Source of the DNA: Candidatus Shapirobacteria bacterium
Lineage (GTDB): Bacteria > Patescibacteriota > Microgenomatia > UBA12405
Assembly: GCA_017991615.1 (NCBI GenBank)
Contig: JAGOQF010000001.1
Span: forward strand, 53,019 to 117,018
Length of the DNA stretch: 64,000 nt
Reading direction: 5' to 3'
Position numbers and translations under genes: made by a program
Part shown: piece by piece, positions 40 to 14,802 of the stretch
Numbering within the stretch: position 1 is the stretch's first letter
How the letters are laid out: each line of letters begins with the position of its first letter
Notes under the pieces: model-generated
The model's input: the letters and a program-made list of their open reading frames with translations, nothing else
Told to the model about the DNA's origin: nothing
Database searches by the model: none

Positions 40-234
40 TGGCTCCGTCGTTCCACCAGGGCGGATCCAAGACTTAGTGGCCTAGGACTTCCGCCTTTGG
101 CGGACAATCGAGGGTTACAGATGGTGGTTAAAAATATGGCTCCGTCGTTCCACCAAGGCGGATCCAAGACTTAGTGGCCTAGGACTTCCGCCTTTGGCGG
201 ACAATCGAGGGTTACAGATGGTGGTTAAAAATAT
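40..234 (+). repeat. Two tandem ~98-bp degenerate tRNA-Glu-like units (40-137 and 138-234, one SNP apart). They share the 5' acceptor/D-arm and T-stem start with the downstream tRNA-Glu, but have a 24-nt insertion, a variant anticodon hairpin (tccgcc-ttt-ggcgga) and no 3' acceptor strand.
   Basis: Direct alignment by eye of units to each other and to the tRNA at 235-308. The variant arm cannot form a 7-nt anticodon loop. Confidence 0.8.
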
Positions 235-308
235 GGCTCCGTCGTCTAGTGGCCTAGGACTCCTGGCTTTCATCCAGGCAATCGAGGGTTCGAATCCCTC
301 CGGAGTCA
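235..308 (+). tRNA. tRNA-Glu (anticodon TTC)
   Basis: Manual cloverleaf: acceptor ggctccg/cggagtc, D-stem gtct/ggac, anticodon stem cctgg/ccagg with loop cTTTCAt, T-arm gaggg-ttcgaat-ccctc, discriminator A. Confidence 0.85.
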
Positions 309-309
309 C

Positions 310-549
310 ATGTATTATGTGTATGTATTGAGAAGCTTGAGGAGTGGAAAGTTTTATAAAGGTCAGACAGCTGATATAGATGATAGGTTGGATAGGCATT
401 TTAAAGGTCAAAGTATTGCCACTAAAAGTTTATTGCCGTTAGAGTTAGTTTTTGTTCAAATTTGTGAAAGTCGCAGTGAAGCGATGATTTTGGAAAGGTA
501 TTTAAAATCAGGAGTTGGGAGAGAATTTATAAAATATATTGTAGTCTAG
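310..549 (+). CDS. Small GIY-YIG nuclease domain protein (79 aa). It starts 1 nt after tRNA-Glu.
   Basis: N-terminus YVYVLRSLRSGKFYKGQTADIDDRLDRH matches the GIY-x10-YIG motif plus conserved Arg/His. The stop codon lies inside the downstream tRNA-fragment repeat. Confidence 0.7.
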   Translation: MYYVYVLRSLRSGKFYKGQTADIDDRLDRHFKGQSIATKSLLPLELVFVQICESRSEAMILERYLKSGVGREFIKYIVV

Positions 550-596
550 GACTTCCGCCTGTGGCGGACAATCGAGGGTTTTTATCTTGGAGTCAT
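543..596 (+). repeat. tRNA-Glu-like 3' fragment carrying the same variant anticodon hairpin (ttccgcctgtggcggac) plus a degenerate T-arm/acceptor (ttggagtca).
   Basis: Shares a ~40-nt core (taggacttccgcc-t/g-tggcggacaatcgagggtt) with the units at 40-234. Confidence 0.7.
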
Positions 597-3481: not shown

Positions 3482-4088
3482 ATTTAATAAAAATTAGTCC
3501 GAAGACGATAAAAATTAAACTTGTAATTTGAGCTAAACTTAGGACAAACACAGGAATAGTGTCTGTTCTAATAAACTCTAATATAAAACGTATTATACCG
3601 TAACTAATAAGATAAATACTGGTTTGATGACGATTAATTTTTTTGAAAATTAAATAAAGAAGGAAAAGACTAATGGATTCATATAACCAAATTGGTTGTT
3701 GATTTGGGCCATAAATTTCATGGTTGAAATAATTTCCCCAGCGACCAAGACTTTGACATAAAGGTACAATCGGAGCTAAGGTATCAGTGATTTTGAGAAA
3801 TTTAAGTTGATTCTTTTTGGCGAAAAAGTAGATAAAAATTAAACTGAAACTGAGAGCGCCAATGATACCCAGTCCCCCACCCCGGAGATTTAGAATTTGG
3901 AGAGGATTTTGAGAAAAGTAATTCCAGGCGGCAATAACACCATAAACTCTGGCGCCAATGATGCCTGATAAGATAAGCAAAAAAATGAATTTATTTTCTT
4001 TGGTTTTGGGGATGATTTGGTTATGGCGATAGAAATATTCAATGCCAACGACTAATGAAATTCCAAGTATAAACCCATAGATTGACAT
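3462..4088 (-). CDS. lgt: Prolipoprotein diacylglyceryl transferase
   Basis: Polytopic membrane protein with Lgt-like segments (GARVYGV, GRWGNYFNHEIYGP). The start ATG abuts the tRNA-like fragment at 4089-4160. Confidence 0.65.
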   Translation of the reverse strand: MSIYGFILGISLVVGIEYFYRHNQIIPKTKENKFIFLLILSGIIGARVYGVIAAWNYFSQNPLQILNLRGGGLGIIGALSFSLIFIYFFAKKNQLKFLKITDTLAPIVPLCQSLGRWGNYFNHEIYGPNQQPIWLYESISLFLLYLIFKKINRHQTSIYLISYGIIRFILEFIRTDTIPVFVLSLAQITSLIFIVFGLIFIKYENSRH

Positions 4089-4160
4089 GAGTGGGTCTGT
4101 GCGGGGCCAAACCCGCGACCAATCCCGATAAATCGGGACTGTTCTACCTGCAGACTGACA
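4089..4160 (-). repeat. tRNA-Lys-like 3' fragment (D-stem 3' strand through acceptor 3' end) with variant anticodon hairpin tcccgatttatcggga.
   Basis: Reverse complement caggtagaacagtcccgatttatcgggattggtcgcgggtttggccccgcacagacccactc aligns to tRNA-Lys at 4431-4503. It shares a 36-nt core with the copy at 4640-4675. Confidence 0.7.
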
Positions 4161-4214
4161 AGTTTATTTATAAAATTTAATTGTTTGAGAGGTAATTATT
4201 AATTTGATGATTTT

Positions 4215-4427
4215 TTAACTTTTTAGGCTTTTTAGATATTTTTCGGTTTTTAGAGCATCGGAATGATTATCAAATTTTTGGCTATATTTTAGTTTAACTG
4301 GAAGATATTTACTAGTAAATCCACTTTTACCATTTTGATGATCGTAGATTCTTTGTTTAAGATTGCGAGTGCTGCCTATATAATATTTTCCGTTTGATAA
4401 TTTTAGAATGTAAACCCAAGAGGACAT
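4215..4427 (-). CDS. Small GIY-YIG nuclease domain protein (70 aa). It starts 3 nt after the tRNA-Lys 3' end.
   Basis: WVYILKLSNGKYYIGSTRNLKQRIYDHQNG: GIY / YIG motifs, conserved Arg, His. Confidence 0.7.
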   Translation of the reverse strand: MSSWVYILKLSNGKYYIGSTRNLKQRIYDHQNGKSGFTSKYLPVKLKYSQKFDNHSDALKTEKYLKSLKS

Positions 4428-4430
4428 GAG

Positions 4431-4503
4431 TGGGTCCTGCGGGACTCGAACCCGCGACCAATTGCTTAAAAGGCAACTGCTCTACCGACTGAGCTAAAGA
4501 CCC
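4431..4503 (-). tRNA. tRNA-Lys (anticodon TTT)
   Basis: Reverse complement GGGTCTTTAGCTCAGTCGGTAGAGCAGTTGCCTTTTAAGCAATTGGTCGCGGGTTCGAGTCCCGCAGGACCCA folds as a cloverleaf. Anticodon loop cTTTTaa. Confidence 0.85.
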
Positions 4504-4740
4504 TGATTGTTAATGCGATTAAAGATTATCGCGACTGCTGTCCGACTGACCTGCCTGCCGGCAGGCAGGGCTAAAGACCCTGATTGTTAAATTTGTAGCA
4601 ATCTTTAGCGCTGAATCTGTTGATTCAGGCGACCAATCCCGATAAATCGGGACTGCTCTACCTGTTCGCAATCGCTGAAGCGATAGCTGATGCAGGCGGG
4701 CCGACTGATCTGCCTATCGGCAGACAAGGCTAAAAATTCT
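4504..4740 (-). repeat. Two degenerate tRNA-Lys-like copies (A 4504-4575, B 4576-4740) upstream of tRNA-Lys. They carry palindromic insertions: a perfect 20-nt palindrome cctgcctgccggcaggcagg and hairpins gcgat..atcgc, ctgaatc..gattcag, tctgcc..ggcaga.
   Basis: Both copies retain gggtctttagc / tcagtcgg / ttggtcgc tRNA segments interrupted by hairpins. Copy B carries the variant anticodon hairpin tcccgatttatcggga. Confidence 0.7.
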
Positions 4741-4764
4741 TAAAAATTTTAGGTGCGAAATGAC

Positions 4765-5076
4765 TTAAATAGTTTTAGCTTTTGGATTTCTAAGATAGTA
4801 TAGTTTTGATCGGCGGACTTTTGTTTTTGGTCCACGTAATTTTTTGATACTATCAATCCAAGGAGAATTAATCGGGAAAATTCTTTCAACAACCACAGCA
4901 TCTGAGGCTTGCTTTTGGACGGTGAAGTTTTTGTTGTCACCACGACCTTTGATAGCCAAAATAAGGCCATCGAAAGCTTGAAGTCTTTCTTTGTCTTTTT
5001 CTTTGATTTTGTAGTTGACCCTGATAGTGTCGCCTACAAAAAATGTCTGATCTTTGTGTGTTATTTTTATTGCCAT
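4765..5076 (-). CDS. rplS: 50S ribosomal protein L19
   Basis: GDTIRVNYKIKE...RLQAFDGLILAIKGRG...FTVQK...VERIFPINSP.IDSI matches the L19 consensus. Confidence 0.9.
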   Translation of the reverse strand: MAIKITHKDQTFFVGDTIRVNYKIKEKDKERLQAFDGLILAIKGRGDNKNFTVQKQASDAVVVERIFPINSPWIDSIKKLRGPKTKVRRSKLYYLRNPKAKTI

Positions 5077-5132
5077 AGTTTCTAAAAAATGCTTTGAAAT
5101 TATATCAAAATAAACTCTGGTAGTCTAGCAAG

Positions 5133-13815: not shown

Positions 13816-14646
13816 TTAGAGTGTTGTTAGAAGATAAACTTTTTTATTTTCATCGTGTTTTATCGTAAGTTTTATATTTTTGATTCTATTTTTTATTTGA
13901 CGAATATTGGTTTTAAAAAGATAATGATTCATTTCGAGTTTTTTTCTAATGTCTTTTGAACTAATACCTTGATTATTTTTAATCAGTAATTTAATTATTT
14001 TTAATCTTATACTGCCTTTTTTAAAGGTTATCTCTTTTTTATTAAACGATAAGATGTTGTTCTTTAAACGAATTCCATTTGTTTTGATTGGTGAATATTG
14101 TGATTTTTGTTTTTCTAAAGCCTTGTCTGTTTCTTCTAAAATAAACTCAATTCTAGTTGGTATCGGAAATTTTTTACTACCGTTTATAGCAAACAAAGTT
14201 TCTATATCTCCTTGAAAATTTAAGTAATTTGCTCGATTATTTACCCAATTACCAATCATAGTTTTTGGATCTCCTAATAAGTTAGGAATCTCATCGAAGG
14301 TTATATCTTTATCCATTATTTGACTTAGGAACTTACCTCTCTTAAAGCCAATTTCTTTTAATACAAATAGAAATAGAGGATAGGCTATGTTAATATCTCG
14401 ATTTGGTTTAATAAATATGTTTTGATTATCTTTTAGAACACAATCTAAAATTTCTATTGTTTTTGAAAGTATTAATTTGTATATAAATAAGTATTGTTGG
14501 TATGTAAATTTACATTTTGTATAGATTTTTGTATTGCAAAGTGTTGCCATTGACTTATCATTTTTAGGGATTGTTGTTAATAAGAGATCGACTGTTTTTG
14601 GGGTCCATCCAGTGGTTAATATTTGATTTATGTAGGATTTAAGCAT
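13816..14646 (-). CDS. Hypothetical protein (276 aa) with a basic, possibly DNA-binding C-terminus
   Basis: Long ORF within the element. No family recognised. Confidence 0.4.
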   Translation of the reverse strand: MLKSYINQILTTGWTPKTVDLLLTTIPKNDKSMATLCNTKIYTKCKFTYQQYLFIYKLILSKTIEILDCVLKDNQNIFIKPNRDINIAYPLFLFVLKEIGFKRGKFLSQIMDKDITFDEIPNLLGDPKTMIGNWVNNRANYLNFQGDIETLFAINGSKKFPIPTRIEFILEETDKALEKQKSQYSPIKTNGIRLKNNILSFNKKEITFKKGSIRLKIIKLLIKNNQGISSKDIRKKLEMNHYLFKTNIRQIKNRIKNIKLTIKHDENKKVYLLTTL

Positions 14647-14723
14647 GGATAAATTATATCAAAGGGTATCATTGTGCCCATAGACTCCATAAGCAATAAA
14701 GTGTTTCCGTTGGCTTTTATAAA

Positions 14724-14802
14724 TCACCCCAACCCAAAGTCGTATTATCTCACGCCGTCCGGCGCGGCCGGACGTGAGGACGACTTTTAAGGTTGGGGGT
14801 GA
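14724..14802. other. GC-rich 79-nt imperfect palindrome with nested core hairpin gtccggc-gcg-gccggac. Candidate replication origin / nick-site hairpin, or regulatory structure.
   Basis: Arms tcaccccaacccaaagtcg...ctcacg and cgtgag...cgacttttaaggttgggggtga are reverse-complementary with bulges. Local GC far above the flanks. Confidence 0.5.

Follow-up and report, generated by a model that had tools for sequence, protein, structure and literature searches.

Ssn nucleases are single-domain GIY-YIG proteins of ~94 amino acids, exemplified by SsnA and its NTS repeat in Neisseria meningitidis (Chenal et al. 2025, PMC11893778). Binding of their target, a directional hairpin repeat, is restricted to its single-stranded DNA (ssDNA) form, and the cut falls a few nucleotides (nt) upstream; NTS has the sequence CGTCATTCCCGCGMAVGCGGGAATCYRG, and the repeats are generally termed Ssn-related motifs (PMC11893778). 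Such motifs lie near 71% of the Ssn homologues and on both sides of 42%, a layout called identical to that of an insertion sequence; according to the paper, what Ssn does beyond Neisseria is not known, and tRNA is nowhere mentioned (PMC11893778). SegB, a GIY-YIG protein of ~220 amino acids with two domains, cuts both DNA strands at a T-arm motif (PMC2330249, PMC13096335), and for the UPF0213 proteins neither a function nor a genomic context has been described (PMC1564403). In this study, we analysed a 64-kb stretch of the genome of a Candidatus Shapirobacteria bacterium (contig JAGOQF010000001.1, positions 53,019 to 117,018; hereafter the window), in which a small GIY-YIG gene lies between the tRNA-Lys gene and lgt. 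Judged from its layout, the locus appears to be an Ssn-like nuclease-hairpin cassette resident in Patescibacteria tRNA genes, i.e., a variant of the recently described kind.

As shown in Table 1, a 3'-partial duplication of tRNA-Lys brackets the GIY-YIG gene, which is lodged between tRNA-Lys and lgt. An earlier reading of the window, made from its letters and open reading frames (ORFs) without database searches (the sequence-only reading), had noticed identical 13-nt junctions at the starts of the two genes, and both junctions are real. The whole window contains two, and only two, copies of the 13-mer ACATGAGTGGGTC (4085-4097 and 4424-4436, one base above the positions first given); 0.02 occurrences are expected by chance, and none of 100 shuffles contained two matches. 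The exact repeat is 14 nt long (GACATGAGTGGGTC). On the minus strand, both copies read ...GACCCA CTC ATG TC, i.e., the 3' end of the tRNA-Lys acceptor, three bases, and a start codon, and the CAT of each copy is, as claimed, the reverse complement of a minus-strand start, that of lgt or that of the GIY-YIG ORF. The reading of GAGTGGG as the 3' acceptor end of tRNA-Lys is borne out by the tRNA-Lys(UUU) gene, to whose acceptor 3' strand it is complementary; at 4092-4158, it forms part of a tRNA-Lys-like sequence. The 14-mer is the tip of a gapped repeat of ~75 nt (4084-4158 versus 4423-4492), which comprises tRNA nt 12-73 plus CTCATGTC and has a local alignment score of 75 (300 shuffles: mean 16.9, maximum 30). 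The idea of a cassette that duplicated the tRNA end therefore stands in that the GIY-YIG gene starts at the junction inside such a duplication, but the size was underestimated, the repeat covering about three-quarters of the tRNA rather than 13 nt. A generic repeat of gene starts was checked as an alternative and does not apply, as only two of the six tRNA genes in the window, tRNA-Lys and tRNA-Glu, carry partial duplicates.

Relatives of the locus were found by a genome scan with the lgt protein; they belong to the Patescibacteria, including Candidatus Shapirobacteria (lgt 67-71% identical), and are designated L001, L002, and so on. Four of these related genomes (L001, L002, L004, and the more distant L005) keep the order rplS, tRNA-Lys, lgt with no GIY-YIG gene in between, which confirms that tRNA-Lys abutting lgt is the ancestral state, as the sequence-only reading had supposed. 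The lgt ATG lies 2-3 nt past the tRNA in L001, L002, and L004 and 17 nt past it in L005. The L002 junction (acccactcATGtcaatcta / aggacccactcATGtcaatcta) is identical to the lgt junction of the window, and the lgt protein of the window starts with the same MS(I/L)YG as in the cassette-less relatives. No GIY-YIG homologue was found in L001-L011. In L003, an unrelated 606-amino-acid ORF (478-2298) lies between tRNA-Lys and lgt without any tRNA duplication, and the junction is therefore prone to insertion.

Sixteen further loci carry the Lys cassette or its scars. In the common form, present in the window and in L012, L013, L017, L019, L021, L023, L024, L026, and L027, the GIY-YIG gene starts 2-4 nt past the live tRNA-Lys, and its stop codon overlaps nt 17-20 of a dead tRNA copy, which continues with the hairpin, ttggtcgc, and an intact, decayed, or replaced T arm. 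All of the downstream dead copies begin at nt 17-20 of the tRNA, and lgt is immediately adjacent in the closer lineages and no more than a few hundred nt away in L023, L024, L026, and L027. Upstream of the live tRNA are one to four more dead copies with the same hairpin, in which the tRNA homology always ends right after ttggtcgc; on both sides, the homology break-points fall 6-11 nt from the stem. In L014, the gene has its own TATAAT and a hairpin segment on each side, and a dockerin-domain protein (1237-2910) follows the dead copy. In the scar of L018, the upstream dead copy alone remains, and in L022 (minus strand), a nucleoside phosphorylase occupies the slot between the live tRNA-Lys (1168-1243) and the motif of the downstream dead copy (287-313).

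Nt 1-11 are missing from the downstream dead copy of the window, copy C, in which the T loop has changed and, like the acceptor, has partly decayed. Its anticodon arm (gttgc-cttttaa-gcaat) is replaced by tcccga-ttta-tcggga, i.e., by a 6-bp stem with a 4-nt loop. ARAGORN and Rfam rejected copy C as a tRNA and accepted only 4431-4503; in a permissive-E Rfam scan of 3900-5100, the real tRNA-Lys alone was matched, and the dead copies fit no family. The motif formed by the hairpin and its tRNA-derived flanks (GTAGAGCAG ... TTGGTC) is almost invariant: its 31-nt core (GTAGAGCAGTCCCGATTTATCGGGATTGGTC) is found in 30 copies from 17 sequences and 12 independent lineages, with at most two variants per column. 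The synonymous divergence (dS) of the GIY-YIG genes ranges from 0.65 to saturation among the cassette lineages, with ratios of nonsynonymous to synonymous divergence (dN/dS) of 0.06-0.38; a neutral 31-mer would be heavily mutated at such a dS, and the core is therefore under strong constraint. As ssDNA, the motif hairpin has a folding energy of -9.2 kcal/mol versus -5.5 kcal/mol for the native anticodon arm. The dead copy of L023 has the usual hairpin, but its T arm and acceptor are those of its own resident tRNA-Lys, which differs in the acceptor and T stem; thus, the hairpin travels with the cassette, while the T arm comes from the host. The repeats flank the genes on both sides and in gene orientation (4631-4661 and 4117-4147 for tRNA-Lys; 90-104, 187-201, and 554-568 for tRNA-Glu), and the type of hairpin goes with the clade of the GIY-YIG protein. 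The two cassette regions hold 9 of the 15 GC-rich perfect 6-bp hairpins of the window, whereas the shuffles gave 0-4. This census rules out hairpins of the REP kind scattered over the genome, the window motifs being found only beside the two GIY-YIG genes. We hold this structural account of the cassette with high confidence.

The encoded protein is a single-domain GIY-YIG protein of the Slx1/UPF0213-like type and not a homing endonuclease of the I-TevI/SegB type. The proteins at both window-type cassettes have 79-87 amino acids, PF01541 spans nearly the whole protein, and neither domain searches nor the model revealed a separate DNA-binding module (NUMOD, zinc finger, or helix-turn-helix). The best matches in sequence and fold are the UPF0213 proteins 1zg2 and 1ywl, at just 21-26% identity, followed by the Slx1 nuclease domain; I-TevI ranks 16th (E 0.77), and the TIGR01453 match is confined to the first ~35 residues (20-22 bits versus a cut-off of 56). 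Among 27 sequences, Tyr16, Arg26, His30, and Glu62 are invariant and Tyr6 is nearly so, and the window ORF retains all five of these catalytic residues ahead of its stop at codon 71, a TAA where the 96%-identical P0001/L013 has CAA. The AlphaFold2 model is one compact domain (pLDDT 90.5), from which the truncation removes the last, C-terminal helix. The family profile matches 35,405 clusters at 50% identity. Over-called N-termini in this family translate tRNA T arms (FES, GSNP, GSIP), 5' parts of tRNAs (AQLVEH), or a CTGCC...GGCAG hairpin (PAGRQ, PACRQAG).

The GIY-YIG gene is probably expressed from the rplS/tRNA transcript. The best, and only good, promoter-like site of the region is upstream of rplS (5099-5127), the GIY-YIG ATG is 3 nt past the tRNA end, and AGGA in the acceptor strand, 7 nt upstream, is the likely ribosome-binding site. 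At 4421-4438 on the minus strand, a possible hairpin (AGGAC-CCACTCAT-GTCCT) pairs the 3' strand of the tRNA acceptor, including the AGGA, with codons 1-3 of the gene, which recalls the translational occlusion proposed for T4 segB. A search of 2.9 million viral contigs for the motif and both GIY-YIG proteins found neither. Phage origin was rejected on this result, PHROGs and PADLOC giving only weak generic matches to homing endonucleases.

The tRNA-Glu region of the window repeats the design with a second GIY-YIG gene, whose TAG stop is part of what remains of the D arm in the dead tRNA-Glu copy that follows. The tRNA-Glu gene is clean in L001 and L005, and decayed tRNA-Glu copies of the same design are found in L028, L034-36, and L037. 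In a mirror-image form, a dead 5' tRNA copy whose D loop holds a hairpin precedes the gene, whose stop lies in or just before the live tRNA; this form occurs at tRNA-Arg (L030), tRNA-Gln (L038), and tRNA-Glu (L040). In L039, a GIY-YIG gene lies between two tRNAs; in L031-33 and L023, it follows tRNA-Ser or tRNA-Asp by ~115-130 nt; and L026 has a copy without a nearby tRNA at 12.1-12.3 kb. All but one of the distinct GIY-YIG loci examined are within ~130 nt of a tRNA gene or remnant, and the same design is found elsewhere at tRNA genes for Arg, Gln, Glu, Leu, and Tyr. The neighbouring tRNAs for Arg, Gln, Leu, Tyr, Ser, and Asp rule out tRNAs with a modified U34 (Lys and Glu) as the sole hosts.

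The GIY-YIG gene is patchily present, i.e., L001-L004 are empty, L018 and L022 have scars, and ~10 lineages are filled. Signs of activity are found at several of these loci. The window has one 77-nt unit, unit B (4504-4580), that is missing from the 96.6%-identical L013. Between L034 and L036, an identity of ~70-78% jumps to 100% exactly at gctcac|ATG of the GIY-YIG gene (L034 630-640) and stays there for at least 740 nt, a sign that recombination broke at the edge of the cassette or, possibly, that the assembly is chimeric. L030 contains two tandem GIY-YIG genes (1140-1800) that are 97.5% identical, each preceded by tRNA-Arg nt 1-16 and a D-loop hairpin (CTGTCTGCCGACAGGCAGG), and L034-36 retain, past the dead tRNA, the remains of the start of a second gene. 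The TAG of the second gene in L030 is nt 8-10 of the live tRNA-Arg, and RNase P processing would therefore cut the mRNA before the stop codon.

Unit A, upstream of the tRNA-Lys gene, contains a second copy of the 31-nt motif. One of its hairpins, TCTGCC-GATA-GGCAGA, is the complement of plus-strand TCTGCCTATCGGCAGA (4709-4724), and the folding energy of the unit is -60.3 kcal/mol (z-score -5.9). Between the window and L013, rplS and lgt differ at ~6% of sites, whereas 4431-4804, which covers unit A, the spacer, and the tRNA, has just two substitutions. Unit B looks like a miniature, non-autonomous derivative. Its palindrome recurs in L026 (CCTGCCTGCCGGCAGG; GCGATAATNTTTA spacer / GCGATAATATTTA), in a unit at 14490-14560 that lies before tRNA-Leu and duplicates tRNA-Leu nt 1-26. 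The spacers after the upstream dead copies were considered as relics of the 3' end of the GIY-YIG gene; their translations were unconvincing save for one KSIDLL-like stretch, and a decayed T arm and acceptor explain them better.

Table 1. Positions of the tRNA-derived units, genes, and repeats in the window
Feature	Position	Strand	Evidence or remarks
Two tandem 97-nt dead tRNA-Glu units	41..234	+	D-loop insert; anticodon arm replaced by TCCGCC-TTT-GGCGGA; 3' half of T arm absent
Functional tRNA-Glu(UUC)	235..309	+	ARAGORN
Second GIY-YIG gene, 79 amino acids	310..549	+	38% identical to the first; ATG immediately past the ARAGORN end of tRNA-Glu (1 nt after the discriminator)
Dead partial tRNA-Glu copy, decayed T arm	544..595	+	Anticodon arm replaced by TCCGCC-TGT-GGCGGA (554-568)
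lgt (prolipoprotein diacylglyceryl transferase), 208 amino acids	3462..4088	-	Pfam LGT 1.6e-42
Repeat copy 1, exact 14 nt	4084..4097	-	Last 6 nt of dead tRNA-Lys copy, CTC, lgt ATG TC
Copy C, dead partial tRNA-Lys (equivalent of tRNA nt 12-73), then CTC (4089-4091)	4092..4158	-	Alignment
Conserved 31-nt motif, GTAGA(A)CAG-TCCCGA-TTTA-TCGGGA-TTGGTC	4117..4147	-	Hairpin 4123-4138; candidate nuclease recognition motif
Remnant of the ancestral 87-codon ORF past the premature stop	4164..4214	-	Still in frame, KIIKLIITSQTIKFYK*, 16 codons
GIY-YIG nuclease ORF, 70 amino acids	4215..4427	-	PF01541 1.7e-16; in-frame TAA 4215-4217
Repeat copy 2	4423..4436	-	Last 6 nt of functional tRNA-Lys, CTC, GIY-YIG gene ATG TC
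Functional tRNA-Lys(UUU)	4431..4503	-	ARAGORN; Rfam 76 bits; identical to tRNA-Lys of empty-site L002
Unit B, 77 nt, without ORF	4504..4580	-	tRNA-Lys nt 1-11, palindrome CCTGCCTGCCGGCAGGCAGG, tcagtcgg, spacer containing GCGATAATCTTTA
Unit A, dead full-length tRNA-Lys-derived unit	4590..4736	-	Four tetraloop hairpins; closing tttagc/gctaaa stem
rplS (ribosomal protein L19)	4765..5076	-	Conserved upstream neighbour; ORF and domain search

Three further observations concern these surroundings. The lgt gene of this lineage starts 2-3 nt past the discriminator base of tRNA-Lys, and its sole Shine-Dalgarno-like AGGA is within the tRNA acceptor stem; with the start so near the tRNA, lgt would be translated from an unprocessed tRNA-mRNA precursor or an essentially leaderless mRNA, and its expression is thus tied to tRNA processing. 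In L005, a dead 5' unit of tRNA-Lys with the hairpin TCCGCC-AACT-GGCGGA (3855-3910) is directly before the live tRNA-Lys. With the GIY-YIG gene absent there, hairpin-tagged tRNA fragments can evidently outlive the gene or spread without it. A long GC-rich inverted repeat (caccccaacc ... ggttgggggtg, inner GTCCGGCGCGGCCGGAC) is located at 14720-14800 of the window, which has a GC content of 36%, between two minus-strand ORFs.

By analogy, we consider that the protein and motif of the cassette operate as an Ssn nuclease does with its own hairpin, a reading to which we give a probability of about 0.55-0.6. The protein would bind the hairpin motif in ssDNA and nick it a few nt to one side; breaks at the motif edges, with tRNA homology alongside, would then drive recombination with a neighbouring or incoming tRNA gene. 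If a unit made up of dead tRNA 17-73, CTC, and the ATG-gene recombined with the resident tRNA-Lys at a point 3' of the anticodon arm, by single crossover or break repair, the result would be exactly the observed order of live tRNA, gene, dead tRNA, and lgt, and the CTC-ATG context would be duplicated. A clean empty site would return if the two T-arm/CTCATG repeats recombined, and the same process would account for dead copies in tandem, for losses that are precise, and for mini-units without an ORF. We infer nuclease-stimulated recombination as a reasonable mechanism.

Several results weigh against this Ssn-like reading. The published degenerate Ssn-related motif, HGTCWYN(0-2)YYVSBRHN(0-5)WNVSBRGN(0-2)RNCYNB, has no match on either strand of the window, and all three hairpin types fail it, although the Neisseria NTS control matches. 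Among proteins of solved structure, the nearest relatives belong to UPF0213, which CDD keeps apart from the Ssn clade cd10448; a link to bona fide Ssn proteins was also sought via plasmid homologues and gave no usable match. The related proteins have 85-87 amino acids, and the copy in the window ends early at a premature stop. A dead tRNA copy or hairpin was not obvious in L031-33 or at the second copies of L023 and L026. In addition, the identity of the GIY-YIG proteins tracks that of lgt (Spearman 0.80, n=33), so that inheritance is mostly vertical and mobility rare or local.

A classical free-standing homing endonuclease of the T4 SegB kind would make a double-strand break in the intact tRNA-Lys gene of cassette-free genomes, repair would copy the cassette in, and the hairpin copy would be immune to cleavage. 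SegB provides a precedent, since its GIY-YIG gene lies in a tRNA cluster and the enzyme recognises a T-arm motif, cuts the tRNA genes of its own genome, and is linked to tandem amplification of tRNA and segB (PMC2330249, PMC13096335). The patchy presence among close relatives, the clustering of break-points at the start of the T stem, and the L034/L036 break-point at the gene edge agree with homing. We nevertheless regard it as unlikely: a protein of one small domain, without a NUMOD, zinc-finger, or helix-turn-helix module and structurally nearer to Slx1/UPF0213 than to I-TevI, is not of the expected kind, a cassette-bearing genome retains its unaltered target tRNA, immunity needs no single exact 31-nt sequence invariant over 12 lineages, and the co-divergence with the host is largely vertical. 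The homing-like insertion by gene conversion put forward in the sequence-only reading is partly borne out: an insertion with a duplication is real, but it took place long ago and has mostly been inherited vertically, and the nuclease does not belong to the classical homing endonucleases. Nor is the present identity of the junctions a fresh conversion tract; it reflects retention, since the arrangement is shared by lineages with an lgt only 39-48% identical to that of the window and dS is 0.65 to saturated.

If the gene had instead been domesticated, e.g., to restrict incoming ssDNA in natural transformation or, with the dead copies as structured RNAs, to take part in RNA or tRNA processing, the nuclease and the tRNA mimics with their hairpins would be of use to the host cell, and the tRNA duplication would be an old one-off event. 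SsnA does modulate transformation in Neisseria (PMC11893778), and the purifying selection on the GIY-YIG gene, its co-divergence with lgt, and the strong structure of unit A, with its two differences from L013 against ~6% in the flanking genes, can be read in this way. Such an origin is, however, rather improbable, given that the design recurs at six or more tRNA species and in both orientations, that close relatives have clean empty sites, and that tandem and decayed copies occur along with relic gene fragments; moreover, the window copy has a nonsense mutation, and a 77-nt unit was acquired after the divergence from L013. Integrative elements that target tRNA genes classically leave a direct repeat of the 3' part of the tRNA at the distal boundary of the insert, and, like the cassette, they lie beside a live tRNA that is kept functional. 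The repeat of 4084-4158 and 4423-4492 has this arrangement, and the slot can hold other genes, as the nucleoside phosphorylase of L022 and the dockerin protein of L014 show. A remnant of an integrase-mediated island at the 3' end of tRNA-Lys, with the GIY-YIG gene as left-over cargo, is still very improbable. No integrase is present at any of the ~16 loci, the sole ORF between the repeats in the window is the GIY-YIG gene, the insert is just ~340 bp with always the same tiny gene, the repeat spans three-quarters of the tRNA and carries a conserved hairpin in place of the anticodon arm, and the mirror-image forms duplicate the 5' part of the tRNA.

A bolder form of the Ssn-like reading, which we consider doubtful, is that tRNA genes are the dedicated landing pads of an unrecognised class of ssDNA mobile elements made of an Ssn-type GIY-YIG nuclease and a hairpin. 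The hairpin, with or without the gene, would enter the D, anticodon, or T loop of the cloverleaf formed by a single-stranded tRNA gene. The element would then regenerate a working tRNA by duplicating part of it and would leave behind hairpin-tagged dead copies and mini-units such as 4504-4580 and the one at tRNA-Leu in L026. If this is true, the biology of the Ssn family would be that of a selfish element akin to a transposon, with a defined target in nature. Even in its more cautious form, the Ssn-like reading offers a concrete natural substrate and ties the family to the behaviour of selfish elements, and it explains arrays of tRNA fragments in Patescibacteria that tRNA finders and gene callers mishandle. 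In our literature searches, no paper connecting tRNA genes with small GIY-YIG genes came up.

The cassette is similar to T4 SegB and T5 F-Tfl in that a GIY-YIG gene lies among tRNA genes, and segB is co-transcribed with the tRNAs. Its stop codon abuts or overlaps tRNA sequence, and SegB has its targets in tRNA genes and promotes tandem duplications of tRNA plus gene. Unlike SegB, the proteins described here have 79-87 amino acids, are Slx1/UPF0213-like, are encoded on the chromosomes of Patescibacteria, and are paired with a conserved hairpin. The IS200/IS605 elements and the REP/RAYT system share with the cassette a small nuclease gene bracketed by subterminal hairpins, which in the cassette, too, would be read in ssDNA, and hairpin derivatives without an ORF; on the other hand, their enzymes are HUH tyrosine transposases rather than proteins of the GIY-YIG fold, for which we know of no strand-transfer chemistry, and the targets here are tRNA genes. 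The UPF0213 and prokaryotic Slx1-like proteins (1zg2 and 1ywl) have the same minimal beta-beta-alpha-beta-alpha-alpha domain.

The resemblance to Ssn is the most extensive. In both systems, a single-domain GIY-YIG protein of ~80-95 amino acids with a similar fold is encoded by a gene that is flanked on both sides by a directional hairpin of 20-50 nt with conserved, non-palindromic flanks, and different protein clades pair with different hairpins. The stems are also similar, i.e., ATTCCC-N8-GGGAAT in NTS and AGTCCC-N8-GGGATT here. The cassette differs from Ssn in that its hairpins are within partial tRNA copies, which have them instead of an anticodon arm, a D loop, or a T arm and which also supply the motif flanks; the gene lies directly against a live tRNA gene; amplification of the motifs over the genome is not seen, those in the 64 kb all being beside the two genes; and the published degenerate motif fails. 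Taken together, these likenesses and differences point to a relative of Ssn, or a close analogue, that is found consistently against tRNA genes in ultra-small bacteria, with candidate recognition hairpins grafted into disabled tRNA copies.

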